64,000 nucleotides of DNA from positions 246 to 64,245 of the forward strand of contig CAVYHN010000032.1 of assembly GCA_963768295.1 (NCBI GenBank), read 5' to 3'. The translations under genes and the position numbers were made by a program. This DNA comes from an uncultured Gammaproteobacteria bacterium. Its GTDB lineage: Bacteria; Pseudomonadota; Gammaproteobacteria; GCA-001735895. This document shows, piece after piece, positions 1 through 34,476 of the stretch. Under the pieces are notes generated by a model that worked only from the letters and a program-made list of their open reading frames with translations, was not told the origin of the DNA and did not search any database. Position 1 is the stretch's first letter, and each line of letters starts with the position of its first letter.

Positions 1-1671
1 AATGTCGTCAGGCCCTGTATCGATCCCTACTTGGATAATAATCCAGTAGAAAAGTCACCCCCTTACTCGATCTGGATTTACGATAGGAACGGCGATAGTC
101 AGAAACCCCTCGTGCTGGCGGAAGCGGGCAGGGTCATCACCGAAGCGATTGCGCTCGAGAATCGAACCCGGGCGCCGGTTATTTTCGACAAGAGTCTGCT
201 TGGCGAGCTCGATACCGGCTGGGAAGGCGAAGTCCTTGGCGTGGTCAATATCAAAAGCGTTTACGACATCGGTGACGGCACGTTTAACGGTTGTTACTTT
301 ACCGAATGCACCTCGGCCCCCGGCATTACTACGGTGCAGGATTTTGCCGACCCGATGAATTCCGCCGCAGCCGATCGTCCGGCGCGCTTCGTGCGTTTTA
401 TCAAGGCGGTCGGCATTCCTGATCCAGACGACCCGACGTTGGTCAATCCGCCTGATCTCGATAACAATGCTTTTGGGCCACAGCGCAACCGTGGTATGCG
501 GGATATCGTCGGCTACGCACCGGTCGAGCCCGATGGCTCGGTCAAGGTCAAGGTCCCGGCCTTTGTGCCGTTAGCGATCGAGGTGCTTGACGCTGAAGGC
601 CGCCGAATCGGGCCGCGGCATGATAACTGGTTCCAGGTGCAGGCCGGAGATATGTTGACCTGCGTCGGCTGTCACGATCCCGTCAATGGCGGCAGCCCAC
701 CCGAAATTCATGCGCGCAGCGACGGCGAGGCGCCGTCGATCAATAGCGGCCTGCCGGCGGGTGGAATATTCGACAATACCCTGATTCCTGGCTCGATGCC
801 GCCCAGTCCTTACATGGGTACTCCCGGGGAAACCATGGCCGAAGTGCGTTTCGACACCGTTGCGGTTGCCAGTCAACCGAAGCTCAGCGCCGATTTGATT
901 TTCACGGATAACTGGACCGATCCCGGAATAAGCACTCAAGACCCTGATATCGCCCATCTTTATGCCGATCTGAGTCCCAATATGTTGAGTCCGACTAATA
1001 CCTTTTGCCAGCCCAGCTGGTTATACAATTGCCGTGTGACGATCAATTATCCGCCGCATATCCATGCCATCTTCCAGCTCGATCGTGACTTTGATAGCGT
1101 CAACGGCCTAGTAGTGTACAGTGACCCGACTTTCGACGACATTACGCCGATGGCGCCGCTTAATCCGCTAAATAACGACCCGACCAACACGCCACTGGAG
1201 TTTGTGGCGGTGGCCGATGGCGTCGGCGACAATACCTGTATTAGTTGCCACACGACTCTCAACGGCACCCGCTTGCCCTATGGCCAGCTTGATTTGACCA
1301 CCGATCTCAACCAGGATCCGAACGATCGTTTCCGGTCTTTTCAGCAAATGTTTAACACCCGGCAGGGCCAGTTCTTTAACGCAGGCGCCATGCAACTCGA
1401 GCAGTTTACGGTGCCCGACGGCATGGGCGGCACCATTCCCGATCCTGCCGCGGCGATCAATCCGATCATGACCACGGCCGGCGCGCGTAACAGTTTCTTC
1501 ATCGAAAAGATGAGCGGCACCGAGCTTGACGCTGGACGCTCTTTACCCGTGGGCAGTGTCGATCATACGATCATGTTGACGGATGCCGAATTAAAGCTGA
1601 TTAGCGAATGGATCGATCTGGGCGCACAAAATTTTAACGATCCATTTGACCCGGACGCGCCACAAAACTAA
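1..1671 (+). CDS. Hydrazine synthase alpha (HZS_alpha) middle-domain-like protein with two c-type heme motifs; 5'-truncated by the window edge
   Basis: Frame is open from base 1 (NVVRPCIDPYLDNN...). GYAPVEPDGSVKVKVPAFVPLAIEVLDAEGRRIG...LTCVGCH resembles the HZS_alpha middle domain. CxxCH motifs: CVGCH (661-675) and CISCH (1237-1251). Confidence 0.75.
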   Translation, partial: NVVRPCIDPYLDNNPVEKSPPYSIWIYDRNGDSQKPLVLAEAGRVITEAIALENRTRAPVIFDKSLLGELDTGWEGEVLGVVNIKSVYDIGDGTFNGCYFTECTSAPGITTVQDFADPMNSAAADRPARFVRFIKAVGIPDPDDPTLVNPPDLDNNAFGPQRNRGMRDIVGYAPVEPDGSVKVKVPAFVPLAIEVLDAEGRRIGPRHDNWFQVQAGDMLTCVGCHDPVNGGSPPEIHARSDGEAPSINSGLPAGGIFDNTLIPGSMPPSPYMGTPGETMAEVRFDTVAVASQPKLSADLIFTDNWTDPGISTQDPDIAHLYADLSPNMLSPTNTFCQPSWLYNCRVTINYPPHIHAIFQLDRDFDSVNGLVVYSDPTFDDITPMAPLNPLNNDPTNTPLEFVAVADGVGDNTCISCHTTLNGTRLPYGQLDLTTDLNQDPNDRFRSFQQMFNTRQGQFFNAGAMQLEQFTVPDGMGGTIPDPAAAINPIMTTAGARNSFFIEKMSGTELDAGRSLPVGSVDHTIMLTDAELKLISEWIDLGAQNFNDPFDPDAPQN

Positions 1672-1703
1672 ATTAGTGGCTGAATTCATACGGGAATAAA
1701 AAC

Positions 1704-2516
1704 TTGAGACGATTCAAGGGGATTCTTTTGCCCAGTCTGTACCTGTTGCTAGCCGCTACCTGCAGTAATGCAGCCTATGCGCAGACGGTAAAAGAGGATC
1801 CGTCGCTAGCGGTGGAGACGGTTGAAAAAAATAGCAAATACTATCGGGTCACCATCACCGATCCGTTTATCGAGCTCCATACCGGCCCAGGCGCAGGCTA
1901 CCCCATATTTTACGTGATCGATCGCGGCACCGAGGTCCAGGTTCTGCGGCGCAAGACCGACTGGTTCAAAATCGTCACCGACGATGGCAAGACCGGTTGG
2001 GCCAGTCGCAATCAGATGCGTCAGACCTTATTGCCGACGGGTGAACCGTTCAAGATCGTCGAGCTCGACCTGGAAGATTTCACGCAGCGTAACTGGGTAC
2101 TCGGGGTGACCGGGGGTGAGTTCGAATCGGCCCCGGTGTTTACTCTGTTCACCGCCTATTCGTTTACCGACAATCTCGCCGCAGAGTTGCATTTCGGCCA
2201 ATCGGTCGGCAGAAAGTCGAGCGCCAGGTTTCTGAAAGCGAATGCTGTCATGCAACCGTTGCCGGATTTGAAGTATTCTCCGTATATGACACTGGGATTG
2301 GGTAGAATAGAAGTCAGCCCGAGCGCGACCCTGATCGTGACCCAGGACGACAGCAACGATTTTGCCCAGTTTGGACTAGGTATACAGCGCTATATCACTC
2401 GCAGTTTTTTATTTCGACTCGAGTTCAATGAATACATTATTTTTTCGGCCAATAGCACCCGCAACGACAATGAGGAAGTAAACGAGTGGAAATTCGGTTT
2501 CGCAGTATTTTTCTAG
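1704..2516 (+). CDS. SH3-domain / outer-membrane beta-barrel fusion protein
   Basis: Signal peptide; bacterial SH3 pattern ELHTGPGAGYPI...VLRRKTDWFKI...GKTGW; amphipathic beta strands ending KFGFAVFF. Confidence 0.75.
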   Translation: MRRFKGILLPSLYLLLAATCSNAAYAQTVKEDPSLAVETVEKNSKYYRVTITDPFIELHTGPGAGYPIFYVIDRGTEVQVLRRKTDWFKIVTDDGKTGWASRNQMRQTLLPTGEPFKIVELDLEDFTQRNWVLGVTGGEFESAPVFTLFTAYSFTDNLAAELHFGQSVGRKSSARFLKANAVMQPLPDLKYSPYMTLGLGRIEVSPSATLIVTQDDSNDFAQFGLGIQRYITRSFLFRLEFNEYIIFSANSTRNDNEEVNEWKFGFAVFF

Positions 2517-3139
2517 CGTTTGCGCTTTTCGCCGCGAGCGCGCCGTTGACCGAGGTCCTGGCGCAAAGCGACGAGGAAGAACAAACTAATTTGATAGAAC
2601 CCCAGATCGAACGCACCGAGTTCGACGAATCACTGATCGACTCGGATGATTTCGAAATCGCGATCTACGGCGGTTACCTGGCGCTGGAAGACTTCGATAC
2701 CAACATCGTGGTCGGGGTTAAGCTCGGCTATCACATTTCGGAAGATTTCTTCGTCCAGGCTTCCTACGGTACCAGTGAAGCCGGGGAAACCAGTTTCGAA
2801 AGACTAAGCGGCGGCGCGCCGCTGTTGTCCGATGACGAACGCTCGGCCGAGTACTATCTCGTCACTCTGGGATTCAATCTGTTCCCAGGGGAGGCATTTG
2901 TCACCGATTCGACTACATTTAATACAGTGTTTTACCTGTCCGCCGGCGTTGGCACCACGACCTTCGCGGGCGACGATCGTTTTACCATCGCTTATGGCGT
3001 TGGCCACCGCACCCTGTTTGCAGACGGTTTCAGTCTGGATATCGAGATGCGGGATTTAATTTTTGAACAGGATGTTTTTGGCGAAGAGGAATCCACCAAT
3101 AATCTGGAGTTCACGGTATCGCTAAACCTGTTTTTTTAA
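2486..3139 (+). CDS. Small outer-membrane beta-barrel domain protein
   Basis: Signal peptide, acidic N-terminus, alternating beta strands, C-terminal LEFTVSLNLFF; start overlaps the upstream gene. Confidence 0.75.
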   Translation: MEIRFRSIFLAFALFAASAPLTEVLAQSDEEEQTNLIEPQIERTEFDESLIDSDDFEIAIYGGYLALEDFDTNIVVGVKLGYHISEDFFVQASYGTSEAGETSFERLSGGAPLLSDDERSAEYYLVTLGFNLFPGEAFVTDSTTFNTVFYLSAGVGTTTFAGDDRFTIAYGVGHRTLFADGFSLDIEMRDLIFEQDVFGEEESTNNLEFTVSLNLFF

Positions 3140-3151
3140 AGGAGAAATAAT

Positions 3152-3664
3152 ATGAAGAGCAAATTATCACGATTCGGGTTGAGCCTGATACTGCTGTGTG
3201 CGGTGTCTTTTGCCGCCGTCGGTCCGGCCAGTGCCGCTACGGGCGGAGGACCGGCGCCAAACTTCACCCTGAAATCGCTGACGGGCAAGAATATGAAGCT
3301 TAGTGAATTGACCGGCAATGTCGTGTTGATTAATTTCTGGGCTTCCTGGTGTGGTCCCTGCCGCGAGGAAATGCCGCTGTTGAATGCTCTGCACAAAAAG
3401 TATGAAGCGCTGGGTTTTACCGTGCTCGGCGTCAACGTCGAAGAACAGGCCGATAACGCGCGCGGTTTCCTGAAAGACTTCCCGGTTGACTTTCCTGTAT
3501 TGCTGGACAGCAAGAATCAGGTCAGCAAACTTTATAGTGTGATCGCGATGCCGACCACGGTGGTGGTGGATCGTGATGGAAACATGCGGTTTCTACACAA
3601 GGGTTTTAAGTCCGGCGATGAGAAAAAATATCGTAAAATTGTGAAAAAGCTGGTGCGGGAGTAA
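3152..3664 (+). CDS. TlpA/ResA family thiol-disulfide reductase (exported thioredoxin)
   Basis: NFWASWCGPC motif, APNFTL, AMPTTVVVDRDG; AAGGAG Shine-Dalgarno upstream. Confidence 0.92.
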   Translation: MKSKLSRFGLSLILLCAVSFAAVGPASAATGGGPAPNFTLKSLTGKNMKLSELTGNVVLINFWASWCGPCREEMPLLNALHKKYEALGFTVLGVNVEEQADNARGFLKDFPVDFPVLLDSKNQVSKLYSVIAMPTTVVVDRDGNMRFLHKGFKSGDEKKYRKIVKKLVRE

Positions 3665-3665
3665 C

Positions 3666-3893
3666 GTGGTGCGACAGGCTCTGGTAATTCCCGCTTTAAT
3701 TGTAACCACGCTGCTTGGTGGTTGCGCCATCGAGCCCTGGGTCAAGCCCTACGAGCGCGCAAACCTGGCGGATCCAATCATGAATTTCAGTCGCGATCCG
3801 GTATCGTCGAGCTACCTGCACCACGTTTACGATTCACGTGAAGGTGCGCGCGGAGCGGGCATAGCTACCGGCGGCGGTTGCGGTTGCAACTAA
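3666..3893 (+). CDS. DUF4266-like small lipoprotein
   Basis: Lipobox LLGGC; VKPYER..LADPIM; C-terminal GGGCGCN, typical of this family. Confidence 0.85.
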   Translation: MVRQALVIPALIVTTLLGGCAIEPWVKPYERANLADPIMNFSRDPVSSSYLHHVYDSREGARGAGIATGGGCGCN

Positions 3894-3905
3894 AGGGAAC
3901 CTGAG

Positions 3906-5090
3906 TTGCTGGTTATTTTACGCAATAGCCTTTCGGCAATTGGTATCGATGGGTTAAAGATGACGGCTGCAATTCGTTGCGCCGTGCTGCTGGGCCTGTG
4001 GACAGTCACCGGGCTGGCCGGCGCGGCAGTGCTGCCGGAAGAACGCGCGGATCTGCTCTACCATAGCTATGACGGCGGTGGTGCCGAAATCTCTGGACCC
4101 TCTTTGCTGGTGCGCAAGAACCTCGGTGACAGCGTTTCGGTTGGCCTGAATCACTATCTCGACAACGTCACCAGTGCTTCGATCGACGTGTTGGTCAGCG
4201 CCAGCGAGTATACCGAGAATCGGGAAGAGAACAGTATCAACCTCGATTACCTGCGCCAGAAGACGACCATGAGTCTGGGTTACACGGTTAGCCAGGAGAG
4301 CGATTTTGACGCCAAAACGCTAAGCCTTGGAATCTCGCAGGACATGTTCGGTGACCTGACCACGATCAGCATGTCGTTTGCACTAGGCGATAACATCATC
4401 GGTAGAAATGGCGACGATGTATTCGAGGAAGAGGCCAAGGTTCGCAGTTACCGCTTTGGTGTATCCCAGATCATGACCAAGAACATGGTCATGGCGATTA
4501 CCTACGAAACGATCAGCGACGAGGGTTATCTCAATAATCCATACCGCCAGGTTCGATATCTCAATGGTGACGGGATTACCTACAGCTTCGAACCAGAAGT
4601 CTATCCGCAAACCCGAACCAGTACCGCGATTGCATTGCGAGCTAACTATTTCCTGCCGCAACGCGCCGCTATTCATGGTGGAGTGCGGGTATTTGACGAT
4701 ACCTGGGATATCGAGGGCACTACCTACGAGGTTGGTTATACGATGCCGTTCGGCGATGAATGGATATTCGAAGCTACCTATCGTTTTCATGATCAATCCA
4801 GCGCAGAGTTTTACAGTGATCTGTTTCCATTCCAGGAAGCCACGACTTTCCGCGCGCGTGATAAAGAGCTGAGCACGTTTACCAGTTCCACCGTTGGTCT
4901 CGGTGCGAGCTGGGAATTTGGGCGTTCCTGGAGCGCGATTGAACGCGGTAGCTTCAATCTGAACATCGACTGGATTAGTTTCGATTATGATGACTTTAGC
5001 GATCTGACGGAGTCGGCGCCGGCTGGTTCAGAATCGCCTTACAGTTTTGATGCCAGGGTTACCCGCTTTTTTACATCGATCTGGTTTTAG
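3906..5090 (+). CDS. DUF3570-like outer-membrane beta-barrel protein (true start may be the ATG near 3960)
   Basis: LPEERADLLYHSYDGGG, DNVTSAS and GYLNNPYR motifs; C-terminal SIWF; lies in the TlpA-DUF4266-DUF3570 arrangement. Confidence 0.8.
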   Translation: MLVILRNSLSAIGIDGLKMTAAIRCAVLLGLWTVTGLAGAAVLPEERADLLYHSYDGGGAEISGPSLLVRKNLGDSVSVGLNHYLDNVTSASIDVLVSASEYTENREENSINLDYLRQKTTMSLGYTVSQESDFDAKTLSLGISQDMFGDLTTISMSFALGDNIIGRNGDDVFEEEAKVRSYRFGVSQIMTKNMVMAITYETISDEGYLNNPYRQVRYLNGDGITYSFEPEVYPQTRTSTAIALRANYFLPQRAAIHGGVRVFDDTWDIEGTTYEVGYTMPFGDEWIFEATYRFHDQSSAEFYSDLFPFQEATTFRARDKELSTFTSSTVGLGASWEFGRSWSAIERGSFNLNIDWISFDYDDFSDLTESAPAGSESPYSFDARVTRFFTSIWF

Positions 5091-6633
5091 CCTGCTGGTG
5101 CTCTATTTTCTGATGCCGGCTTCGCTGCAGGCATCCGAAGTCGCTAACTGCGTGGCGCTTATCGGCGTCGATATCGAAACCAGCGAAATCCTTCCAGCGT
5201 CCGAATCGCAGGCCTTGATCGAGCCTTTCCTCGGCGCCTGCATCGACGTGGATTTAACCCATGACCTGCTGTCGGTAATTTCCGACCACCTTATCGAAAA
5301 CGGCTATGTCACCTCGCGTCCCTACCTGCTGGAGCAGGATATCAGCGATGGTCAGATCGAGATTCGAATCCTGGCCGGCAGCATAGAAAAAATTGTCGAT
5401 GCCGACAGCGGCGGCAGCAATGGCAAGATTGCAACCGCCTTTCTGTTCAATGACGCAATCCTCAACTTGCGCGAACTCGAAACCGCGCTGGAACAAATAG
5501 AGCGAGTTTCATCCATTACTGCCAACATCGAAATAAGACCCGGCGCTCGGCAGGGTGGTAGCATTGTCGCTATCAGGACGGTCGAATCAGATCCATTGAA
5601 ATTCGAACTGGGGGCTAATGCGCAGACGGATCTCGACGACCAGCTCAGTTTTTTGATGAGCTGGGATAACCCTCTGCATATCAACGACATACTGCAGTTT
5701 CGTCTGAATGACGGCGAGCTGCGCGAAACCTTCCAGAGCAACCGCAGCCGCGAGTTGACTTATTCTTTCCCGCTTGGCGGCTATCTGCTCGAGCTGAGCC
5801 ATAGCGATATTAATTTCAAGCAGCGCCTGCAGGGTAGCAACGGCAGTTTTCTGTCCGCAGGCGATACGCTGGCTGACAGCTTTCGCGTCAGTAAAATCGT
5901 TGCCCGCAACCAGGACAGTCGGGTGACGCTGGGGCTGGCACTCGAAATCAAGGATACGGATAATTTTTTTGAAGGCGAGGCGGTCGACGTGTCGAGCTAC
6001 AAGACTAGTCAAATACAACTTGAACTGCGGCATGACTGGTACCAACCCTGGGGGCGGCTAGGCATGCGGTATATATACCATCAGGGGCTGGATTCATTTG
6101 GGGCCAGGGACGATGACTATTTTACCCGCGCGGACGGATCCGAAAACGAGGCGCGCTTACAATTCGAAAAAGTCAGTATCGATAGCAGGGTTTCAGTTTA
6201 CCTCGACGGGCCGAGCTGGTATCTGGACCTGAACCTGCATTTGCAGTACAGCGACGATCTTCTTTTCGACAGCGATAAACTTAATCTGGGCAGCCCCTAT
6301 ACGGTACGCGGGTATTCTTCGGCGTTGAGCGGCAGCAATGCCTGGTATCTGCGAAGTGATATTACCTGGCAACTGGAATCTACTGCTAAGCCGTCAGCGG
6401 CGAAGCGGCTGACCAAATCGGTCGCTCTGTCGTTCGGCCTGGACTATGGCGAAGTTGAATGCGAGATCGATAACGCCGACGTCTGTGGAGAAATCTATGC
6501 TGCCGGTCTGGGCCTGGTGGTGTGGGACTCGAATTTCAGCGGGCGCCTGCTGTGGGGGCATCCGCTCAGGGAAATCGGTGATGGGATTGGGGACGAAGAT
6601 CGCTTCCTGCTCGATTTCCGCTGGGCGCTCTAA
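5047..6633 (+). CDS. ShlB/FhaC/HecB (TpsB) family two-partner secretion transporter; start uncertain
   Basis: POTRA pattern GYVTSRPYL..QDISDGQIEIRILAG; loop-6 motif TVRGY; C-terminal barrel strand FLLDFRWAL. Confidence 0.85.
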   Translation: MMPGLPAFLHRSGFSLLVLYFLMPASLQASEVANCVALIGVDIETSEILPASESQALIEPFLGACIDVDLTHDLLSVISDHLIENGYVTSRPYLLEQDISDGQIEIRILAGSIEKIVDADSGGSNGKIATAFLFNDAILNLRELETALEQIERVSSITANIEIRPGARQGGSIVAIRTVESDPLKFELGANAQTDLDDQLSFLMSWDNPLHINDILQFRLNDGELRETFQSNRSRELTYSFPLGGYLLELSHSDINFKQRLQGSNGSFLSAGDTLADSFRVSKIVARNQDSRVTLGLALEIKDTDNFFEGEAVDVSSYKTSQIQLELRHDWYQPWGRLGMRYIYHQGLDSFGARDDDYFTRADGSENEARLQFEKVSIDSRVSVYLDGPSWYLDLNLHLQYSDDLLFDSDKLNLGSPYTVRGYSSALSGSNAWYLRSDITWQLESTAKPSAAKRLTKSVALSFGLDYGEVECEIDNADVCGEIYAAGLGLVVWDSNFSGRLLWGHPLREIGDGIGDEDRFLLDFRWAL

Positions 6634-6641
6634 CGCCCGGC

Positions 6642-7937
6642 TCAAAGTTGTCGCTCGGTAATGTCTTCGCGTTGATCGAGTTGTTCGATTTCGTGCCTGG
6701 CGACAGCCTCGGCGTATTCGATCGAATCGGGCGCGATATATTCCGCAATCGGCGTGCCGATCGGGCCGGCGACCAGCATCGACTGATCCCTGACTGCAAC
6801 ACCCGCGCGTGATCCGATTCTGATCAGGGTGAAAAAGAATATGAGCGCGAACACGACCGCGATACCCCAGAAGTAAAATTCGATGCCGAGTAATTCCATG
6901 AAAAACGCGATCACGATGGGTCCTATCATGGCGCCGAAACCCGCCACCATGACGAGACTGCCGCTGGCGCCAACAATCTGGTGCGGCTCCAGGCGGTCAT
7001 TGGCATAGGCGATACAGATCGAATACATCGGTATTGCGGCGCCGCCCAGACCCACGATGACCAGGTAAAAAGCCAGGCTGCCTTTGACCATGACCACCGC
7101 CAGGATACAGCAGACAATCGAGACAAGCGACAGCCCCGCCATGACCACGCGCCGGCCGACCAGGTCCGAGATGTGACCAACCGGCCACTGAGCAACGAGG
7201 CTGCCGAGCAGAAAACAGGCCATGAACAGCGATATCGACTTCAAGTCCACCAGAACCTGGTTGGCGTAGATCGCACCCAGGCCGAAAATAGTGCCATGTG
7301 CCATCCCGGTCAGACAGTTGCCGATCGTGGCCAGCGGCGAAGCCCGGTACAGCTCGGCAACCGACATTTTCGACGAGGTACTGAAATTGGGCGCGGGTTT
7401 TGCGGTGAGCAGAATTGGAATCAGCCCGAAGGAGATGATGACCGAGATCAGAATGAACAGGTCGATGGCTTCGGGTTTGGCGATATTCAGCAGGAACTGA
7501 CCCGCGCCCATGCCGCCGGTTACGATCACCATGTAGACAGACAGGACCTTGCCGCGGGTTTCGTTACTGGCGCGATCGTTTAACCAGCTTTCGGTGACGA
7601 CATAGAATCCGGCGAAGCAGAGACCGGTTAAGACGCGCATCGCCATCCATAGCCACGGATCGATATAAACCCCGTGAAACAATATCGAAATCGATGCCAG
7701 CGAAGCCAGCGCCGAAAACACGCGGATGTGGCCGACTCGATTAACCAGCCAGGGTGCGAGCATCGAACCGATGAACATGCCGATAAAATAACCCGACATC
7801 ATGATCCCGGTGCTGAACGTCGAAAATCCCTCGATGCCGGCGCGCACGCCGAGCAAGGTACCCTGCAGGCCGTTGGCCAGCATCATGAAGCCTATGCCAA
7901 GCAGTATCGCCCAGGAGGCGCCGAGCTCTTTCCACAT
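6642..7937 (-). CDS. MFS transporter (YcaD-like)
   Basis: About 12 hydrophobic segments; RVGHIRVF and GHISDLVGRR motif A; ESWLN. Confidence 0.88.
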   Translation of the reverse strand: MWKELGASWAILLGIGFMMLANGLQGTLLGVRAGIEGFSTFSTGIMMSGYFIGMFIGSMLAPWLVNRVGHIRVFSALASLASISILFHGVYIDPWLWMAMRVLTGLCFAGFYVVTESWLNDRASNETRGKVLSVYMVIVTGGMGAGQFLLNIAKPEAIDLFILISVIISFGLIPILLTAKPAPNFSTSSKMSVAELYRASPLATIGNCLTGMAHGTIFGLGAIYANQVLVDLKSISLFMACFLLGSLVAQWPVGHISDLVGRRVVMAGLSLVSIVCCILAVVMVKGSLAFYLVIVGLGGAAIPMYSICIAYANDRLEPHQIVGASGSLVMVAGFGAMIGPIVIAFFMELLGIEFYFWGIAVVFALIFFFTLIRIGSRAGVAVRDQSMLVAGPIGTPIAEYIAPDSIEYAEAVARHEIEQLDQREDITERQL

Positions 7938-8016
7938 CGAATCGTTTTTCCGTGAAGTGAATGACTAGCAGTCAGTGTGCGCGGATTCTAGTAGAGCGCT
8001 GACAGCGCAGCAACGA

Positions 8017-8832
8017 CTAATTCAGTTCCGCGTAGCCGGCTTCAATGGCAAAGTTTTCAAGCTCGAGGATCGATTGATAATCGTCCAGGCCGACGCTTTC
8101 GAAACGCGCCAGGTGCAGCTTTTGCCTAAGCTCTGCGGGTAGCAGCGTCAAAGCCTGGTTGAGTGCGCTTACATAGCTTGCGCAAACTTGTGCTGAATAT
8201 TGCGACGTCGGCACGACCAGGGGGAGGCCGCCGGTTTGCTCGCTGTGGCCGATAACACGCAGTGCGGAAATCAGGGCGGGATTCTGGTCGGCGATCAACT
8301 GGTAAGTGACGCAGTCGATGGCCGCCAGCTGGGCCCGGTTTGACGCGACCGCCTCGACGCTGGCGAGATGACCTCCGCTGATCAGGACTTCCGAAAAATA
8401 ACCCGGCGTAGCGCCCAGCTTTGCCAGCGCATAGCGCAGCACGTTCATGCCGCTGTTCGAATCGCTGCTATTGATCGCGACGATTTTGCCACGGCATTGC
8501 TGCAGTGACTCGATTACTGAATCCGCGGGTACGATGAACTGGCTCGAATAGAATTTACCGCTAGCACCCGGCAGGTCGAAGCAGGGCAGGCAAAAAGGCT
8601 GGAGTGCGTCCCGTAATCGCGTCATCAATGGGTATCCACAGGTGTGACCAATTATCAGGTTGTCAGCGCGCAGAACTGATTCATCGCTGGCGAAAACCAG
8701 TTGCCGCGTTAATCCGCTACCCAGATCGAGCAAAGGATAAAATAGGTCAAAAAGCGCCTGCCAGGCATTTCGGATGTCGTCATTCGGTGCATACATGCCG
8801 CAGGCAATGAATCGGCCGGCATTCATGGCCAT
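8017..8832 (-). CDS. PhnD/SsuA/transferrin-family substrate-binding protein, no evident signal peptide
   Basis: HTCGYP, AINSSDSNSG, SGGHLASVEAVASNRAQLAAIDCVT motifs. Confidence 0.75.
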   Translation of the reverse strand: MAMNAGRFIACGMYAPNDDIRNAWQALFDLFYPLLDLGSGLTRQLVFASDESVLRADNLIIGHTCGYPLMTRLRDALQPFCLPCFDLPGASGKFYSSQFIVPADSVIESLQQCRGKIVAINSSDSNSGMNVLRYALAKLGATPGYFSEVLISGGHLASVEAVASNRAQLAAIDCVTYQLIADQNPALISALRVIGHSEQTGGLPLVVPTSQYSAQVCASYVSALNQALTLLPAELRQKLHLARFESVGLDDYQSILELENFAIEAGYAELN

Positions 8833-8933
8833 ACAAAGTATCCCGGGAATAACTTAAAAACCAGCTTCTTTTAATGCCTGGTTTGTTGATTTAAGTAAAC
8901 AAAAATGTTTTGAAAAAACTCTAGTGACATAGA

Positions 8934-8962
8934 TAGACAATTTTAAATACGTCAAATACTAT
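8934..8962 (+). promoter_or_regulatory. Putative sigma70 promoter of the mttB operon
   Basis: TAGACA (8934-8939), 17-nt spacer, TACTAT (8957-8962) in an AT-rich divergent intergenic region. Confidence 0.55.
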
Positions 8963-8988
8963 CGACGCTTGCCGCCGAGGAGCCGGTC

Positions 8989-10509
8989 ATGCCCAGAAGA
9001 AGAGCTCGAAAACCTACCCCGTCCAGCGAACAACTGCTGCCGCCGAAAGCGCAGCAGCTGTTCAACCCCTATGCCCCGATTGCGGCACTGGATGCGGAGT
9101 CGCTGGATTTAATCCATGACGCCTCGATGCGGATTCTCGAAGAGATCGGCCTCGAGATACTGAGTCGGGACGCGCTTGCGCTGTACGAGCAAGACGGGGC
9201 ACGCGTCGACTGGGATGAGCAGAAGGTTTACCTGGACCGCAACCAGCTCATGCAGAGAATTGCGAGCGTGCCCTCGGAGTTTACGCTGCATGCGCCAAAC
9301 CCCGAGCGCAACCGCCTGATAGGGCGCAATGCGATCAACTTTACCACCGTTGCCAGCGCGCCCAACAGCTCCGATCTCGAAGGCGGCAGGCGCACTGGCA
9401 ACTTTGCAGACTACTGCAACTTTCTGCGCCTGGCGCAAAGCTTCGACGTCATCGATTTTCTCAGCGGTTACCCGGTCGAGCCGATCGACATTCCACCCGA
9501 TACACGCCACCTCGACGCTACCCTGGCGGCATTCACGCTGACCGATCGCGCGTTTTCACTCTACTGCCTCGGCGGCGGCCGCGTTCTGGACGGGATACAG
9601 ATGACCGCGATTGCGCGCGGGGTCGATCTGGAAACCCTCAAAACGCAACCCAGTATAAACAGCGTGGTCAATACCAATTCGCCGCTGCGGGTCGACGGGC
9701 CGATGCTCGATGGCCTGATAGAAATGGCGCAGTATGGTCAGCCCGTTATCGTGACTCCGTTTACGCTATCCGGGGCGATGTGCCCGATTACCCTTGCCGG
9801 TGCGCTGGCGCAGCAAAATGCCGAGGCGCTCGGCGTCATCGCCTTGTCGCAAATCGTCAACCCGGGCGCGCCGATGGTATACGGCGGCTTCACCTCGAAC
9901 GCGGATATGCGCAGCGGTGCCCCGGCCTTTGGCACGCCCGAGTACACCCGCGCCGCCTGGGCCAGCGGCCAGCTCGCGCGCCGCTACGGTATTCCATTTC
10001 GTTCGTCCAATACCAATGCGTCGAATTGCGTCGACGCCCAGGCCGCCTGGGAATCGCAGATGTCGCTGTGGGGTGCGGTCATGGGGCATGCGCAGATTAT
10101 CAAACACGCCGCCGGCTGGCTCGAGGGCGGTCTGTGCGCTTCGTTCGAAAAATTCATTATCGATGTCGACATGCTGCAAATGATGCGCGAGACACTGACG
10201 CCGCTGAAGGTGGATGAATCGACGCTGGCGCTGGACGCGATCAGGGAAGCCGGGCACGGTGGTCATTTCTTCGGCACCGCGCATACCCTGGCTAACTACA
10301 CCACCGCTTTTTACGAGCCGCTGGTTTCCGACTGGAGCAATTTCGAGGCCTGGAGCGAGAACGGTGCGCAGAATGCGTTTCAGCGCGCCAACCTGATATA
10401 CCGGCAAAAACTTGCCGAGTATCAGCCGCCCGCAATGGATGCCTCGAGACGCCAGTCGCTGGAACAGTATGTCGTCGAACGCCGGCACGAACTGGAGCTC
10501 GCACGGTGA
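8989..10509 (+). CDS. Trimethylamine methyltransferase family protein (MttB/MtgB-like, pyrrolysine-free)
   Basis: NTNSPL, PFTLSGAMCPITLAGALAQQNAE, GAPAFGTPE and HAAGWLEGGL motifs; no in-frame amber codon. Confidence 0.92.
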   Translation: MPRRRARKPTPSSEQLLPPKAQQLFNPYAPIAALDAESLDLIHDASMRILEEIGLEILSRDALALYEQDGARVDWDEQKVYLDRNQLMQRIASVPSEFTLHAPNPERNRLIGRNAINFTTVASAPNSSDLEGGRRTGNFADYCNFLRLAQSFDVIDFLSGYPVEPIDIPPDTRHLDATLAAFTLTDRAFSLYCLGGGRVLDGIQMTAIARGVDLETLKTQPSINSVVNTNSPLRVDGPMLDGLIEMAQYGQPVIVTPFTLSGAMCPITLAGALAQQNAEALGVIALSQIVNPGAPMVYGGFTSNADMRSGAPAFGTPEYTRAAWASGQLARRYGIPFRSSNTNASNCVDAQAAWESQMSLWGAVMGHAQIIKHAAGWLEGGLCASFEKFIIDVDMLQMMRETLTPLKVDESTLALDAIREAGHGGHFFGTAHTLANYTTAFYEPLVSDWSNFEAWSENGAQNAFQRANLIYRQKLAEYQPPAMDASRRQSLEQYVVERRHELELAR

Positions 10510-11360
10510 AATTACAGGAACGGGTCAGCCTGTTCCAGGACCGCCTGCAGCAGGTCATTAGCTATAGCGGGCTCAATCGCTCGGCGTTTGCGGCCTCGAT
10601 CAGGGTCGATCGTTCGACCCTGTCGCAGTTACTCGCGGTCGACAATATCCGCCTGCCACGCGCCGACACGGTGACGTCGATCGCCGAAGTCCATCAGGTC
10701 AGCATCGACTGGCTGCTGGGTTTGACCCAGGAAGGCTCGATGGGCGCCAATATTCTGCCCGAAGCTTTCCAGTTCGATGCTTACTCGACCAGTATTCTCG
10801 AAAAAAACCTGGAATGGCATCGTGAAGCCTGCGGTTACAAAATCCGCTACGTGCCGACGACCCTGCCCGACCTGCTCAAGACCGAAGCGGTGGCGGAGTA
10901 CGAATTCAATCGCTATGGCGCCGGCAAGGTCGATCAGACAGTGCGCGACAACCAGCTGCTGTTGCTGCAACAACGCCATCCGGGCAGCGAACTCGAAACC
11001 TGCATGCCACTGCAGCAGCTCGAAAGTTTCGCTGCCGGGCAGGGGATCTGGCAGGGGTTGGCGCTGGCCGATCGCCGCGCCCAGCTCGAACGCATGATCG
11101 AACTCAATGCTGAGCTTTACCCGGGATTTCGCTGGTTTCTGTTCGACGGCAAACAAAGCTACTCGTCGTCGTTTATCATATTCGGCCCATTGCGGGCGAC
11201 GCTGTTCCTCGGACACCTGTATGTCATCGTCAACAGCATCGATCATATACGCCAGCTTACCGATCGCTTCGACGACCTGATTCGCATCGCGATGGTGCAC
11301 CCGCATGAAATCCAGGCCCACCTGCAACAACTGCTGGAACAGACAGAGCAACTAACTTGA
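10506..11360 (+). CDS. XRE-family helix-turn-helix transcriptional regulator with a long C-terminal domain
   Basis: SGLNRSAFAASIRVDRSTLSQLL...VSIDWLLGL HTH; GTGA overlap with the mttB stop. Confidence 0.8.
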   Translation: MKLQERVSLFQDRLQQVISYSGLNRSAFAASIRVDRSTLSQLLAVDNIRLPRADTVTSIAEVHQVSIDWLLGLTQEGSMGANILPEAFQFDAYSTSILEKNLEWHREACGYKIRYVPTTLPDLLKTEAVAEYEFNRYGAGKVDQTVRDNQLLLLQQRHPGSELETCMPLQQLESFAAGQGIWQGLALADRRAQLERMIELNAELYPGFRWFLFDGKQSYSSSFIIFGPLRATLFLGHLYVIVNSIDHIRQLTDRFDDLIRIAMVHPHEIQAHLQQLLEQTEQLT

Positions 11361-11375
11361 AGACAGGAACTCAGC

Positions 11376-12683
11376 ATGGCTAAGAGCTACGATGCAATCA
11401 TCATTGGCGCCGGAATTATCGGTTGCGCAACCTCGCTCGCGCTGGGGCGCAAAGGCTGGAAGGTGCTGAACCTGGACCGCCTGCCGGCGGCGGGCTACGG
11501 CTCTACCTCGGGCTCCTGCGCTATTATCCGCCCCTATTACTCTACGCTCGACGGCTCGGCGATGGCTTACGAGTCGCATTTCTACTGGAAAAACTGGGCC
11601 GAGTACCTGGGCGGCGACGATATCGACGAGCGCGGCCTGATCGAGTATCACAATGTCGGTTCGCTGGTCATGAAAACCGAGGCTAACGACTACCTGCGCC
11701 CGACGATGGCGTTGATGGAGCATCTCGACTCCCCCTACAGCGAGCTTTCGCCCGCAGAAATACGCCAGAAATTGCCGGTCTGGAACACCGAATCGTTTTA
11801 TCCGGTGAAGCGACCCGATGATTCCGAATTCGGCGTCGCCAACGAGCAACCCTTGCCCGGCGCCGTGCTGTTTCATGCCGCGGGTTATATCTCAGATCCG
11901 CAGCTGGCGACGCATAACATTATGCGTGCCGCCGAGATTGCCGGCGGTGAGTTCAAGTACAACGCGCGGGTGATCGAAATTCGCCGTGACAGCGGTCAGG
12001 TCTCTGGCGTTACCCTCGAAGGCGGTGAAACCGTCGATGCCCCAGTGGTGCTCAATGCCGCCGGACCGCATTCATCCAAGGTCAATCAGATGGCAGATGT
12101 CGAGAAATCGATGCGGGTCAAAACCCGCGCGCTGCGCCAGGAAGTGGCGCATGTGCCGCTACCGGAGGGTTACCGCCGTGAAACCGCCTGCGTTACCTCG
12201 GATAGCGATATCGGGCTCTACACCCGTCCCGAGCAGGGCGATGCGCTCCTGATCGGCAGCGAGGATCCACCCTGCGACCCGCATGAATGGGTGGACCCGG
12301 ATGACTATAACCGTGATTTCAGCGAACAGTGGAAGGTGCAGGTACTGCGAGTTTGTCAACGGGTGCCGAATCTGGGCGTGCCCAGCCAGATGCGCGGCGT
12401 AGTCGATCTGTACGATGTTACCGATGACTGGATCCCGATCTACGACCAGTCGGACCTGCCCGGTTTTTACCTCGCGATCGGCACCAGCGGTAACCAGTTC
12501 AAAAACGCGCCAATCGCAGGTGAATTGATGGCTAACATCATCGAGGCGACGCAAAGCGGCAACGATCACGATGCCGACCCGATCGATTTTCATCTAAAAA
12601 CAATCGATCATACTTTTTCCAGCGGTTTTTACTCACGCTTGCGTGAGGTTAACCAGGACAGCAGCTTTTCCGTACTGGGGTAG
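11376..12683 (+). CDS. FAD-dependent oxidoreductase (DAO / sarcosine-oxidase-like)
   Basis: Rossmann motif IIIGAGIIG; GSTSGSCAIIR; YDVTDDWIPI; GTSGNQFK. Confidence 0.88.
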   Translation: MAKSYDAIIIGAGIIGCATSLALGRKGWKVLNLDRLPAAGYGSTSGSCAIIRPYYSTLDGSAMAYESHFYWKNWAEYLGGDDIDERGLIEYHNVGSLVMKTEANDYLRPTMALMEHLDSPYSELSPAEIRQKLPVWNTESFYPVKRPDDSEFGVANEQPLPGAVLFHAAGYISDPQLATHNIMRAAEIAGGEFKYNARVIEIRRDSGQVSGVTLEGGETVDAPVVLNAAGPHSSKVNQMADVEKSMRVKTRALRQEVAHVPLPEGYRRETACVTSDSDIGLYTRPEQGDALLIGSEDPPCDPHEWVDPDDYNRDFSEQWKVQVLRVCQRVPNLGVPSQMRGVVDLYDVTDDWIPIYDQSDLPGFYLAIGTSGNQFKNAPIAGELMANIIEATQSGNDHDADPIDFHLKTIDHTFSSGFYSRLREVNQDSSFSVLG

Positions 12684-12688
12684 CAGAT

Positions 12689-15106
12689 ATGAAATCTCAT
12701 GCACAGGTAGTGGTCATTGGCGGCGGGGTAGTCGGTTGCAGCGTTATCTATCACCTGACCAAACTCGGCCTGCGGGACGTGGTTCTGATCGAACGTTCGG
12801 AATTGACTTCGGGCTCGACCTGGCACGCCGCCGGCGGATTCCACACGCTCAATGCCGATACCAACATGGCCGCGTTGCAGGGTTACACGATTCGCCTTTA
12901 TCGTGAGCTCGAGGAACTCACCGGCCAGTCCTGCAGCCTGCATCACGTCGGCGGTATCACGCTCGCGGAGTCGCCGGAGCGGCTCGATTTCCTCAAGTCG
13001 GCACGCGCGATGCATCGCCACATGGGTCTCGATACCGAGCTGATTACGCCCGCGGAAATTCGCAAACTAAGTCCGATTACCAATACTGACGGCGTCCTCG
13101 GCGCGTTGTACGATCCGCTCGACGGACACCTTGACCCCTCGGGGACCACGCACGCCTATGCCAAAGCGGCGCAGATGCAGGGCGCTGAAATCGTGCTGCG
13201 CTGTCCGGTGCTGGAAACCAATCCAAGGGCTGACGGCAGCTGGGAAGTGGTTAGCGAACAGGGCACGATTATCGCCGAACAACTGGTCAATGCCGCCGGG
13301 CTGTGGGCGCGCGAAGTCGGCGCCATGGCCGGGGTGTACCTGCCGCTGCATCCGATGGAACACCAGTATTTCGCAACCGCGGATATTGCCGAGGTGTACG
13401 GGCACGCGCGCGAGTTACCGCACGTCATGGACCCCGAGGGCGAGAGTTATCTGCGCCAGGAAGGCAAGGGCCTGGTGATCGGATTTTACGAACAGAACTG
13501 CGTGCCCTGGGCGGTCGACGGCACGCGCTGGGATTTCGGACATGAACTGCTGGATGAAAATCTCGATCGCATCGGCGATTCGATGGAGTTCGCCTTCAGG
13601 CGTTTCCCGGTGCTCGCCGACGCCGGTATCAAGACCATCATCAACGGGCCCTTCACCTTTGCGCCGGACGGTAACCCGCTGGTCGGGCCGGTGCCCGGCC
13701 TGCGTAACTACTGGTCAGCCTGTGCGGTGATGGCCGGTTTCAGCCAGGGCGGTGGCGTCGGGCTAACGCTGGCGGAATGGATGATCGATGGTGAACCCTC
13801 ACGTGATGTGTTCGCGATGGACGTGGCGCGCTTCGGCGATTACTGCACGCCGTCGTACACCCGCCTCAAGGTGCGTGAGAATTACCAGCGGCGTTTCAGC
13901 GTGTCCTATCCCAACGAGGAGTTGCCGGCGGCGCGACCCCTGGACACCACCCCGGTTTACGGCATCTGGCAGTCGCAAAATGCGGTCTTTGGCGACATGT
14001 ACGGCATGGAGCACGTAAATTACTTTGCGCCCGCGGCTGAGGAACCGTATGAAATTCCGAGTTTTCGGCGCTCCAATGCCTTCGACACGGTGGCTGAAGA
14101 GGTGCGCGCGGTGCGCGAAAACGTCGGTCTCAACGAGGTGCATAATTTCGGCAAGTACGAAGTCTCGGGCGCGGGCGCGCACGCGTACCTTGACCGGATC
14201 ATGGCCGGCAGGATACCGGCAGTCGGCAGGCTGAGCCTGAACCCGATGCTGAGCCCACGCGGCCGGATTATCGGCGATTTTACCGTGGCCCAGGTTTCGA
14301 CCGGCGTATTCCAGGTCACCGCGTCGTTCGGCGCGCAGGCTTACCACATGCGCTGGTTCGAACAGCATTTGCCCGCATCGGGGGTGCAGCTGCGCAATAT
14401 TTCAAAACAGCGTATCGGATTTCAGATCGCGGGCCCGAGGGCGCAGGAATTGCTGGCGCGGGTAACGCGCGCCGACGTGTCGACCGCGGCGATGCCCTTC
14501 CTGTCGATTCGCGAAATCGATGTCGGCCAGTGCCAGGCGATCGTGCAGCGCGTCAGCTATACCGGTGACCGCGGTTATGAAATCTATGTACCCTGGCACA
14601 ACCAGGTCGCGCTCTACCAGGTGCTGACCGAGGCGGGTAAAGATCTCGCGCTGCGGCCCTTCGGGATGCGCGCAATGATGAGCCTGCGACTCGATAAATC
14701 ATTCGGTTCCTGGATGCGTGAATTCAAGCCCGACTATACGCCGCTCGAAACCGGTCTCGATCGTTTCGTCGCTTATGATAAGGCTACCGATTTCATCGGC
14801 AAGGCCGCGGCGCTGGCTGAAAGAGAGCAGGGCGTGAGCCGCAGGTTATGCACCTTCGAGGTCGACGCCAGGGATGCCGATGCCGTCGCCTGGGAACCTA
14901 TCTGGCACGCCGGTGAGGTCGTGGGTTACGTGACCTCGGGCGGTTACTCGCATTACGCCAAAAAGAGCATCGCCTTCGGATTCCTGCCGACTGAACTGGC
15001 CGCAGAAGGTCGCCAGGTCGAAATCGAAATCCTCGGCGACATGATCCCGGCCCGACTCTACACCGCGCCCCTGTTCGATCCCGACAACGAATACCTGCGT
15101 GGCTAG
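12689..15106 (+). CDS. GcvT-family FAD-dependent dehydrogenase (dimethylglycine/sarcosine dehydrogenase-like)
   Basis: VIGGGVVG, LTSGSTWHAAG, NGPFTFAPDGNPLVG; folate-binding GcvT half (SYTGDRGYE, GYVTSGGY). Confidence 0.93.
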   Translation: MKSHAQVVVIGGGVVGCSVIYHLTKLGLRDVVLIERSELTSGSTWHAAGGFHTLNADTNMAALQGYTIRLYRELEELTGQSCSLHHVGGITLAESPERLDFLKSARAMHRHMGLDTELITPAEIRKLSPITNTDGVLGALYDPLDGHLDPSGTTHAYAKAAQMQGAEIVLRCPVLETNPRADGSWEVVSEQGTIIAEQLVNAAGLWAREVGAMAGVYLPLHPMEHQYFATADIAEVYGHARELPHVMDPEGESYLRQEGKGLVIGFYEQNCVPWAVDGTRWDFGHELLDENLDRIGDSMEFAFRRFPVLADAGIKTIINGPFTFAPDGNPLVGPVPGLRNYWSACAVMAGFSQGGGVGLTLAEWMIDGEPSRDVFAMDVARFGDYCTPSYTRLKVRENYQRRFSVSYPNEELPAARPLDTTPVYGIWQSQNAVFGDMYGMEHVNYFAPAAEEPYEIPSFRRSNAFDTVAEEVRAVRENVGLNEVHNFGKYEVSGAGAHAYLDRIMAGRIPAVGRLSLNPMLSPRGRIIGDFTVAQVSTGVFQVTASFGAQAYHMRWFEQHLPASGVQLRNISKQRIGFQIAGPRAQELLARVTRADVSTAAMPFLSIREIDVGQCQAIVQRVSYTGDRGYEIYVPWHNQVALYQVLTEAGKDLALRPFGMRAMMSLRLDKSFGSWMREFKPDYTPLETGLDRFVAYDKATDFIGKAAALAEREQGVSRRLCTFEVDARDADAVAWEPIWHAGEVVGYVTSGGYSHYAKKSIAFGFLPTELAAEGRQVEIEILGDMIPARLYTAPLFDPDNEYLRG

Positions 15107-15585: not shown

Positions 15586-16512
15586 GTGGCGTCGGGTTCG
15601 AAGCTGGTCATTATTGCGGCATTGATCGGTAATGCGCTGATTTCGATTACCAAGTTTGCGGCGGCGGCGATGACCGGCAGCTCGGCGATGATGTCCGAGG
15701 GCATTCACTCGCTGGTCGATACCGGCAACCAGGTATTGCTGCTTTACGGTTTGAAGCGTGCAGCCAAACCGCCCGACGCTGATTTTCCCTTCGGTTACGG
15801 CAAGGAAATCTACTTCTGGAGCTTTATCGTCGCGATTCTCATTTTTGCGCTCGGCGGCGGCATTTCAATTTACGAGGGTATTCGGCACATTCAGCACCCT
15901 GAGCCGATCAGCAACCCGTTGATCAACTACGTCGTGCTCGGTCTGGCGATGATTTTCGAAGGCGCGGCCTGGTATTTTGCGTTCCGTGAGTTCAGCCGGG
16001 TCAAGGGGCGCTGGGGATATCTCGAGGCGATTCAGCGCGCCAAGGATCCTACGGTTTTCGTTATTCTGTTCGAGGATAGCGCGGCGATGCTCGGTTTGCT
16101 GGTGGCGTTTATCGGCGTGCTGCTGACACATACCACCGGGATACTGATATTCGACGGCGCCGCGTCGGTGATTATCGGCCTGATCCTGATCGGCACCGCG
16201 GTCTGGCTGGCCTATGAAACCAAGGGGTTACTGATCGGTGAAAGCGCCAACCGGTCGGTAATCCGCGGTATCCGCGACTCGCTGCAGGGGCATTCGAACA
16301 TCAATCACGTCAACGAAATATTGACCATGCATATGGGCCCCGATTTCATTCTCGCCAATATAAGCGTCGACTTTGCCGATTCGATTAGCGCCGAGCAAGT
16401 CGAGTCAGATACAGCAGCGATCGATCGGGCGATCAAGCAGCGCTATCCACAAATCAAACGTGTATTCGTCGAGGCGGAGAGTCGCGGCAACAAGTATCCG
16501 TACAACGGATAG
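15586..16512 (+). CDS. Cation diffusion facilitator (CDF) family transporter
   Basis: SEGIHSLVDTGNQ, PFGYGKE and FEDSAA motifs; C-terminal cytoplasmic domain. Confidence 0.92.
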   Translation: MASGSKLVIIAALIGNALISITKFAAAAMTGSSAMMSEGIHSLVDTGNQVLLLYGLKRAAKPPDADFPFGYGKEIYFWSFIVAILIFALGGGISIYEGIRHIQHPEPISNPLINYVVLGLAMIFEGAAWYFAFREFSRVKGRWGYLEAIQRAKDPTVFVILFEDSAAMLGLLVAFIGVLLTHTTGILIFDGAASVIIGLILIGTAVWLAYETKGLLIGESANRSVIRGIRDSLQGHSNINHVNEILTMHMGPDFILANISVDFADSISAEQVESDTAAIDRAIKQRYPQIKRVFVEAESRGNKYPYNG

Positions 16513-17643: not shown

Positions 17644-18276
17644 ATGTCCACATCGACTTTACTCGAAACCCGGGATCTCGGCTGTATCCGCAACGATCGT
17701 CAACTATTCGAGCATCTTGAATTTGCGCTCGAAGCGGGCGAGATGCTGGTCGTCGAAGGCCCCAACGGCTGCGGCAAAACCAGCCTGTTGCGCATCCTGA
17801 CCGGGCTCAGGCTGGCGGATAAGGGTGACATTTTATGGCGTGGCGAAGCGATCGACCGTCTCGCCGGAGATTATTATGAACAGGTCAACTATGTCGGCCA
17901 CCACGATGGCATTAAACATGAACTGTCCTGTCTGGAAAATCTGCGTCTGGCGAGAGCGATGGGGATTCCTTCGCAACGTGATCTCGAAGACGTGCTCGAG
18001 CAGGTAAATCTGTATGCCTATGGCGAGTCCGAGGTAGGCAGCCTTTCGGCCGGTCAGAAACGCCGCCTCGCGCTGGCGCGGCTGCTGGCGACCGATTCGC
18101 TACTGTGGATTCTGGATGAACCCTTTACCTCGCTCGACAAAGCCAGCATGGAATTGTTCGCCGCGCTGTTTGAGCAGCACCTGCAGCGCGAGGGCGTTAT
18201 CGTGGTCACCTCGCATCACGATATTTCGCTGCCGACGCTGGCGGTACAGCGGTTGGACCTGGGGCAGCCGACATGA
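17644..18276 (+). CDS. ccmA: Heme export ABC transporter ATP-binding protein CcmA
   Basis: GPNGCGKT Walker A, LSAGQKRR, WILDEPFT; first gene of the ccm operon. Confidence 0.95.
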   Translation: MSTSTLLETRDLGCIRNDRQLFEHLEFALEAGEMLVVEGPNGCGKTSLLRILTGLRLADKGDILWRGEAIDRLAGDYYEQVNYVGHHDGIKHELSCLENLRLARAMGIPSQRDLEDVLEQVNLYAYGESEVGSLSAGQKRRLALARLLATDSLLWILDEPFTSLDKASMELFAALFEQHLQREGVIVVTSHHDISLPTLAVQRLDLGQPT

Positions 18277-18959: not shown

Positions 18960-18969
18960 ACGGATAAAT

Positions 18970-34051: not shown

Positions 34052-34053
34052 TC

Positions 34054-34464: not shown

Positions 34465-34476
34465 CGGAGACGAAGC

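Follow-up and report, generated by a model that had tools for sequence, protein, structure and literature searches.

The first 5,090 nucleotides of the 64,000-nucleotide stretch analysed here (the window, from an uncultured gammaproteobacterium) contain six genes, g1 to g6, tightly packed and co-oriented on the forward strand (Table 1), and the evidence strongly supports the view that they form one operon of exported proteins. It is likewise strongly supported that g4, g5 and g6, with an ApbE gene that lies upstream in relatives, correspond to the published flavinylation cassette of a thioredoxin-like protein, DUF4266 and DUF3570. This cassette is present in hundreds of genomes and its function is still called uncertain; the present locus gives it fixed partners, namely five c-type haems, a protein exported by the twin-arginine translocation (Tat) pathway and two anchor barrels. 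Positions 1-5090 may be the right-hand half of a conserved gammaproteobacterial envelope redox module, a reading to which we give a little less than an even chance.

Six exported proteins in a conserved order

An initial annotation, made from the sequence alone, had listed six closely spaced genes with their domains and motifs, and this list was borne out by the listing of open reading frames (ORFs) and by profile searches. The intergenic spacing is, in order, 32, -31, 12, 1 and 12-66 nucleotides, and a scan for promoters and terminators came out below chance, with no signal above that level between the genes. The overlap of g2 and g3 (31 nucleotides, 2486-2516) is also present in the relative L002 and suggests coupled synthesis of the two proteins by translational coupling. 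All six products bear export signals, that of g1 being read from full-length homologues; the 5' end of g1 and the genes upstream of it were taken from relatives, as the window spans nearly the whole of its 64.8-kb source contig. The three barrel proteins (g2, g3 and g6) finish in an aromatic residue typical of outer-membrane proteins, and this last residue is phenylalanine in 71 of 74 g2 orthologues and in all 71 g3 orthologues. The initial annotation had spoken of three beta-barrels, and all three are indeed of outer-membrane types. However, the barrel domains of g2, whose C-terminal part matches TIGR04565, and of g3 are only about 150 residues long and match the small OmpA/OmpX-type family (OMP_b-brl), so these two proteins look like anchors and not like pores.

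One genome per GTDB species was scanned with an alignment of g1, which gave 79 loci, and the ORFs of these loci were then searched; the queries were the window proteins plus the proteins encoded upstream in L002. The initial annotation had staked its proposal beforehand on the genes occurring together across genomes, and they do: where at least 3.6 kb of sequence is available downstream of g1, g1-g6 are collinear in 55 of 62 loci, and of the remaining seven, six are without TlpA only and one is without g3. Such a retention of order and adjacency far exceeds chance and would be hard to obtain otherwise, and we therefore favour a shared function of g1-g6. The carriers, whose g1 proteins range from 88% to 38% identity, include Steroidobacter, Kangiella, Woeseiaceae, Lentisalinibacter salinarum X77 and Steroidobacter gossypii S1-65, as well as symbionts of Olavius, Lamellibrachia and lucinid clams (Thiodiazotropha). 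Among them are sediment lineages of cosmopolitan distribution (Woeseiaceae, Steroidobacterales), symbionts of animals and at least two species in culture, so that genetics and biochemistry should be feasible. Contigs of several sediment and marine-sediment metagenome studies hold sequence near-identical to positions 1-5090; exact-sequence look-ups gave no match for g6 (with either of two start codons) and only a 778-bp contig for g4.

The conservation extends upstream of g1. The initial annotation had proposed to recover this region in search of the N-terminus and of further cytochrome or ApbE genes, and the relatives supplied a lipoprotein N-terminus, two further cytochromes and, in close relatives, ApbE. 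A divergent trio is present in 54 of the 56 loci with at least 6.5 kb of upstream sequence. It consists of a 441-residue secreted protein with one CxxCH (71/71), a LamG lipoprotein of about 900 residues with two CxxCH (61/61) and a 546-residue protein with a twin-arginine signal (60/61). The nine-gene core is thus composed of the Tat protein, the LamG dihaem lipoprotein and the monohaem protein on one strand, and g1-g6, divergent from them, on the other. In L002, the minus strand upstream of the g1 orthologue (381-9636) encodes the 441-residue monohaem protein, a 908-residue LamG dihaem lipoprotein and the 546-residue Tat-signal protein, together with ApbE, a 207-residue secreted acidic protein and tetratricopeptide repeat (TPR) proteins. 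The first three genes are conserved equally to g1-g6. ApbE, the 207-residue protein and the TPR proteins go with the module in many loci, where their positions vary, and distant carriers have unrelated sequence on either side of the module. Pfam, NCBIfam and PDB sequence searches returned no family for the 441-residue cytochrome, the Tat protein or the 207-residue protein; the Tat protein, with its GGYDYH motif, gives a mere impression of likeness to DUF1501.

The flavinylation cassette and the DUF3570 barrel

In a full-text literature search, DUF3570 together with DUF4266 occurred essentially in one study, that of Meheust et al. (eLife 2021, PMC8238504); the TlpA/DUF4266/DUF3570 neighbourhood is also touched on in passing in a preprint by Haft (2023). 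Meheust et al. reported that orphan apbE genes cluster with DUF3570, that DUF3570 has two conserved [S/T]GA[S/T] motifs, and that the DUF3570 protein of Chlorobium luteolum is flavinylated by its cognate ApbE in Escherichia coli, a modification abolished only when both serines are mutated (PMC8238504). The recurrent cluster consists of ApbE, DUF3570, a thioredoxin-like protein and the CXC-bearing DUF4266, and was found 227 times with DsbD and 316 times without it (PMC8238504). Its function "remains uncertain" according to these authors, who linked many flavinylation clusters to iron assimilation and recorded the iron transporter VIT1 in 25 DUF3570 clusters (PMC8238504). The words "barrel" and "porin" do not appear in that paper, and "outer membrane" occurs once, in connection with siderophore transporters and not with DUF3570 (PMC8238504).

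The three non-ApbE members of the published cluster correspond to g4, g5 and g6, which have both flavinylation motifs and the CXC end of DUF4266, and no DsbD gene is co-located with them, as in the 316 published clusters. There are also differences. The published thioredoxin belongs to PF13899, whereas g4 is of the TlpA/ResA type (AhpC-TSA/Redoxin); the two motifs of g6 read TSAS and VSAS, with Ser in the place of Gly, although some g6 orthologues have the canonical SGAS. Furthermore, g4-g6 share an operon with a dihaem lipoprotein resembling the alpha subunit of hydrazine synthase (HZS) and with two small barrels, opposite the genes for three secreted redox proteins. The initial annotation regarded the gene set as the best candidate for an undescribed system and knew of no characterised function for it. 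Since Meheust et al. had published the TlpA-like/DUF4266/DUF3570/ApbE cluster (PMC8238504), half of this system is a described cassette, already connected with flavinylation, although its physiological function was left "uncertain" there. The flavinylation cassette, the TlpA family, the orphan HZS-alpha-like family and the small outer-membrane barrels are all known parts. No paper was found with the combination of g4-g6 with g1-g3 and the upstream trio, that is, with the nine-gene combination, and the supplement text of PMC8238504 contained none of the searched Pfam accessions. Nor was a paper found that reads DUF3570 as an outer-membrane barrel or that places both flavin sites on one invariant loop.

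It is strongly supported that g6 is an outer-membrane barrel that retains both ApbE acceptor motifs. Its AlphaFold (AF2) model, with a predicted local distance difference test score (pLDDT) of 72, contains beta structure only, arranged as 16 long antiparallel strands, and Foldseek searches with this model matched outer-membrane barrels only (OmpG, CymA, OccD/K, FadL and PelB). Both predicted acceptors of flavin mononucleotide (FMN), Ser74 and Ser82, fall within the loop that joins strand 3 to strand 4. All 65 orthologues carry the first motif, D-x-x-[ST]-[SG]-A-[ST], and 64 of the 65 carry the second; a Hymenobacter DUF3570 protein only 25% identical to g6 retains the first as DYYSSAS. The long loops of the model (11, 28, 25 and 12 residues) all come after odd-numbered strands; because the termini of such barrels are usually periplasmic, this strand parity would place the flavin loop outside or folded into the lumen. 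The mature N-terminus (g6 residues 22-41, window 3960-4040), AAVLPEERADLLYHSYDGGG, is near-invariant among 25 homologues, which is unusual for a first barrel strand and may mark a docking site. DUF3570 could be a "flavoporin", an outer-membrane barrel in which a conserved loop, situated in or at the outer mouth, would bear covalent FMN, so that electrons could cross the outer membrane without haem; we regard this idea as unlikely. Its possible periplasmic wiring, to a thiol relay from TlpA to the CXC tail of DUF4266 and to the HZS-alpha-like dihaem enzyme, seems to us similarly doubtful. If true, the "flavoporin" would add a third kind of electron conduit through the outer membrane to the multihaem porin-cytochromes and Cyc2, and one widespread among marine-sediment bacteria and chemosynthetic symbionts.

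The remaining members of the cassette keep their redox residues as well. In an alignment of 70 sequences, the window included, the g5 orthologues have a lipobox, an invariant PWVKPYER..LADPIM core and an invariant GGGCGCN tail, and the C-terminal GCGCN is present in 69 of 69 orthologues. WCxPC is kept in 62 of 63 g4 orthologues. The likely flavin-transferring enzyme is encoded in syntenic relatives with 88% g1 identity, in which an ApbE gene (PF02424, 1.5e-79) is located about 6 kb upstream of g1. A search based on g5 returned close gammaproteobacterial relatives only, and the diverse cassettes came from tblastn of plasmids. Among these, Hymenobacter plasmids have the cassette alone, with no cytochrome and no extra barrels; the annotated order in Hymenobacter sp. 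DG25B is thioredoxin, ApbE, DUF4266 and DUF3570. In the plasmid of this strain (NZ_CP010056.1; positions 8348-9600 of locus L085), DUF3570 appears as two adjacent coding sequences in an otherwise intact cassette, possibly as the result of a frameshift or as a pseudogene. As the cassette stands alone in Hymenobacter, we consider it a portable unit that has been fixed to a haem-protein set in this gammaproteobacterial lineage.

The Hymenobacter cassette without cytochromes is also what one would expect if the locus consisted of two unrelated neighbours, with g1-g3 and the upstream genes making a periplasmic haem enzyme, and with g4-g6 acting as an independent flavin cassette or g4 as a dedicated reductant of the local apocytochrome CxxCH. 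The proteins TlpA, ResA and CcmG classically reduce apocytochrome cysteines, the closest solved relatives of g4 in a PDB search are DsbE/ResA proteins, and TlpA is the least conserved member. Nevertheless, we think this division improbable. Those 55 of 62 loci keep the order g1-g6 even at identities as low as 38%, and neighbouring genes overlap or are separated by 1-32 nucleotides; the thioredoxin stays with DUF4266 and DUF3570 even where no cytochrome is encoded, and the cytochrome c maturation operon already has a canonical CcmG. This operon, which the initial annotation had correctly described as full and placed at 17.6-24.5 kb, is a complete CcmABC(D)EFGHI set at 17644-24466; its CcmG (22369-22767) is the only g4 paralogue in the window, with 32% identity. 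Like the TlpA/ResA/CcmG reductants, g4 has a thioredoxin fold, a WCxPC site and an export signal, and dependence on DsbD or CcdA is presumed for it; unlike them, it is encoded away from the Ccm operon, and its conserved neighbours are DUF4266 and DUF3570 instead of maturation or Sco genes. A role of g4 as the general Ccm reductant was therefore rejected, since the Ccm operon has its separate CcmG, and g4 is assigned to the flavin cassette, which the thioredoxin accompanies in Hymenobacter too.

The dihaem lipoprotein and its relation to hydrazine synthase

About 392 N-terminal residues of g1 fall upstream of the window. The full-length homologues have 920-960 residues, come nearly all from uncultured marine Gammaproteobacteria and begin with a lipoprotein signal (LNAC, LSAC or LSGC) whose lipobox cysteine is invariant in 76 sequences; the cytochrome thus has the export signal on which the initial annotation had made its proposal depend. 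A PD40/TolB-like propeller is followed by the HZS_alpha domain with haem motif 1 and by a C-terminal domain with haem motif 2, and two CxxCH are present in 75 of 76 orthologues. The sole sequence match in the PDB is the alpha subunit of the Kuenenia stuttgartiensis hydrazine synthase (5C2V, chain A), found by HMMER as three collinear pieces. The AlphaFold (AF2) model of full-length g1 has a mean pLDDT of 49, with the haem domains below 35, and served the fold search only; the top Foldseek match of this low-confidence model was again 5c2v_A (716 columns, E 4e-19), with TolB propellers ranking below it. An exhaustive HMMER search returned 248 cluster representatives (clusters at 50% identity) with E <= 1e-30; at the looser limit of E <= 1e-3 the number was 1417.

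These results strongly support the conclusion that g1 has the three-domain build of HZS alpha with ordinary CxxCH haems. In both proteins an N-terminal propeller is followed by a middle domain with CxxCH at its end and then by a C-terminal domain that has a CxxCH of its own and finishes with a common (E)WIDLGAQ motif. However, they are only about 14% identical, and g1 is lipid-anchored, belongs to non-anammox Gammaproteobacteria and is without the beta and gamma partners. In HZS alpha, the hallmark Tyr591 is the proximal ligand of haem alpha-I, and His587 is diverted to a zinc site with Cys303 (PMC12758564). The position of Tyr591 aligns with Val in the sequence CVGCHD(S/P)V. Genes for the beta and gamma subunits were not found near g1, there being neither a CCP/MauG-like gene nor a second propeller gene among the neighbours. 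Hence the HZS-alpha likeness given in the initial annotation holds for the three-domain architecture and not for Tyr591 or the partner subunits. With its Tyr591 ligand replaced by Val, g1 is an orphan member of the HZS_alpha superfamily and not a hydrazine synthase; membership in the latter was rejected on the replacement and on the lack of beta and gamma genes nearby. The g1 locus is the first conserved functional context outside anammox for this large orphan family.

The collinear match from the propeller to the C-terminus, with HZS alpha as the only solved relative, could also be taken to mean that g1 condenses or converts small nitrogen compounds such as hydroxylamine or nitric oxide in a manner like hydrazine synthase. 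We consider this very improbable. Besides the Val at the Tyr591 position and the missing beta and gamma subunits, there are aerobic heterotrophs among the carriers, and none of the more than 600 "HZS_alpha domain-containing" structural homologues that have been reported has a known function or is functional in anammox, all of them lacking the key residues (PMC12758564).

The initial annotation had also compared the locus with porin-cytochrome pairs. The presence of a cytochrome and outer-membrane barrels in one operon, in a genome with a Ccm system, would suit a conduit of the MtrCAB or Pcc type, in which a barrel sheathes a cytochrome that passes electrons to an extracellular substrate. This analogy failed, however, and we give such a conduit hardly any chance. 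A span of the membrane needs 8-12 haems, compared with two in g1, two in one upstream cytochrome and one in the other; g6 is modelled with about 16 strands instead of the 20 or more of a sheath barrel, g2 and g3 belong to a small-barrel family, and profile searches gave no MtrB or multihaem family match. The MtrCAB-type conduit was rejected on haem number and barrel size. The present locus resembles MtrCAB, PcaABC and Cyc2 in that an outer-membrane barrel is tied to a redox cofactor and that c-type cytochromes are encoded in its operon; Cyc2, a fused cytochrome-porin, has been modelled with about 16 strands, as has g6. Here, covalent FMN on a loop would take the place of haem as the cofactor of the barrel, and there is neither a multihaem wire nor sequence similarity to those systems.

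A possible electron path and the neighbouring genes

One possible explanation of the conserved gene set is a relay from TlpA through the DUF4266 tail and FMN on DUF3570 to haem, a tentative scheme that we would place just short of an even chance. Reducing equivalents would be brought to the periplasm by a DsbD/CcdA-type protein encoded elsewhere, which would reduce TlpA (g4), and TlpA would in turn hold the Cys-Gly-Cys tail of the DUF4266 lipoprotein (g5) reduced. The dithiol of this tail could trade two electrons with one or two covalent FMNs on the invariant loop of DUF3570 (g6). Flavins convert between two-electron and one-electron carriers, and the FMN might act as such a converter here, passing electrons one at a time to the c-type haems in g1 and in the pair of upstream cytochromes. 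The lipid anchor would tether g1 at the outer membrane, perhaps with the help of the SH3/barrel pair g2-g3, and haem 2 of g1 may relay electrons to haem 1 beside the propeller, where a small substrate would be turned over. The reverse flow, from haem to flavin and on to an outside acceptor or to thiols, would fit the data equally well. The initial annotation had proposed an outer-membrane or surface redox machine coupling haem and dithiol chemistry; the exported proteins and their conserved redox residues agree with this, whereas the predicted covalent FMN had been missed. By giving DUF3570 fixed partners and putting this flavoprotein in the outer membrane, the locus would turn the vague label of extracytosolic electron transfer into a testable wiring diagram.

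Several points weigh against this relay. It is built on adjacency and conserved residues, and no RNA sequencing runs containing the locus were found that could supply expression data. ApbE is absent from the window and was found within 10 kb in 32 loci only. A heuristic scan of the window detected no DsbD/CcdA-like multi-pass membrane ORF with a Cys pair, and DsbD was not seen in the module flanks of two cultured carriers. No TlpA gene is detectable between g3 and g5 in six loci of the Woeseiaceae/Lentisalinibacter type (L030, L034, L049, L055, L080 and L083); because these keep g1-g3, g5 and g6, the module would either do without the thiol input or receive it in trans. The mean pLDDT shows the g1 model to be poor, the flavin loop of g6 has a pLDDT below 50, and the side of the membrane on which this loop lies was deduced from strand parity alone. 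Finally, since the Hymenobacter cassette exists without a cytochrome, g1 could be a neighbour with a separate job.

The iron-assimilation link of the flavinylation clusters and VIT1 in 25 DUF3570 clusters (PMC8238504) raise the alternative of reductive metal handling at the outer membrane. The FMN of DUF3570 would reduce Fe(III) or Cu(II), with the cytochromes feeding electrons to the flavin. The possible contribution of DUF4266, with its flexible Cys-Gly-Cys tail reduced by TlpA and serving as a ligand of Cu(I) or Fe(II), would be comparable to the service of TlpA to the copper chaperone ScoI. C-terminal CXC tails are known in metallochaperones, and TlpA reduces ScoI and CoxB. A gene for cation efflux of the cation diffusion facilitator (CDF) family is nearby (window 15586-16512), also in close relatives. 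However, the conserved core is without a metal transporter, the CDF and major facilitator superfamily (MFS) genes are confined to close relatives while the flanks of distant carriers differ, and g1-g3 match no known metal-binding family. We therefore regard metal reduction by DUF3570 as unlikely, and the ligand role of the DUF4266 tail as no less doubtful.

Table 1. Positions of g1-g7 and of the redox motifs in the window
Feature	Position	Strand	Description
g1	1..1671	+	C-terminal 556 residues of dihaem HZS-alpha-like lipoprotein of about 950 residues; PF18582 HZS_alpha E 1.8e-13
Haem-binding motif 1 (g1)	661..675	+	CVGCH; end of HZS_alpha middle domain
Haem-binding motif 2 (g1)	1237..1251	+	CISCH; C-terminal domain
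g2	1704..2516	+	Signal peptide, SH3_3 6e-12, OMP_b-brl 5e-7, C-terminal FF
g3	2486..3139	+	Signal peptide, acidic linker, OMP_myx_plus barrel; TIGR04565 3e-46, OMP_b-brl 7e-8
g4	3152..3664	+	Exported TlpA/ResA-type thiol-disulfide oxidoreductase (AhpC-TSA/Redoxin); WCGPC at 3347-3361
g5	3666..3893	+	DUF4266 lipoprotein; PF14086 E 1.9e-22; lipobox LLGGC 3711-3725; tail GGGCGCN 3870-3890
g6	3960..5090 (longest ORF start 3906)	+	DUF3570; PF12094 E 1.8e-36; C-terminus ...SIWF
Tandem ApbE-type flavinylation motifs (g6)	4161..4211	+	DNVTSAS, then DVLVSAS(EY) seven residues on; residues 68-82
g7	5047..6633	+	ShlB/FhaC-type TpsB transporter; ShlB 3e-57, POTRA_2 1e-14, POTRA_3 7e-9

The gene that follows the operon, g7, shares about 41 nucleotides with the 3' end of g6, and in L002 a gap of 195 nucleotides lies between the two. 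Only the 12 closest loci have g7 after g6, and the gene is lineage-specific and outside the conserved core; the MFS gene is likewise limited to close relatives. No TpsA cargo with a TPS domain (Haemagg_act) was found among the neighbours of g7 in the window or in L002. Farther downstream, positions 8017-15106 encode a phosphonate-type periplasmic binding protein (minus strand), an MttB-family methyltransferase, a DAO-type FAD oxidoreductase and a dimethylglycine-dehydrogenase-like DAO+GCV_T protein, which probably function in the catabolism of methylated amines or betaine. Flagellar rod and hook genes (Flg_bb_rod and FlgE domains) are located at 33650-37275, and a COX15/CtaA haem A synthase gene at 41442-42476.

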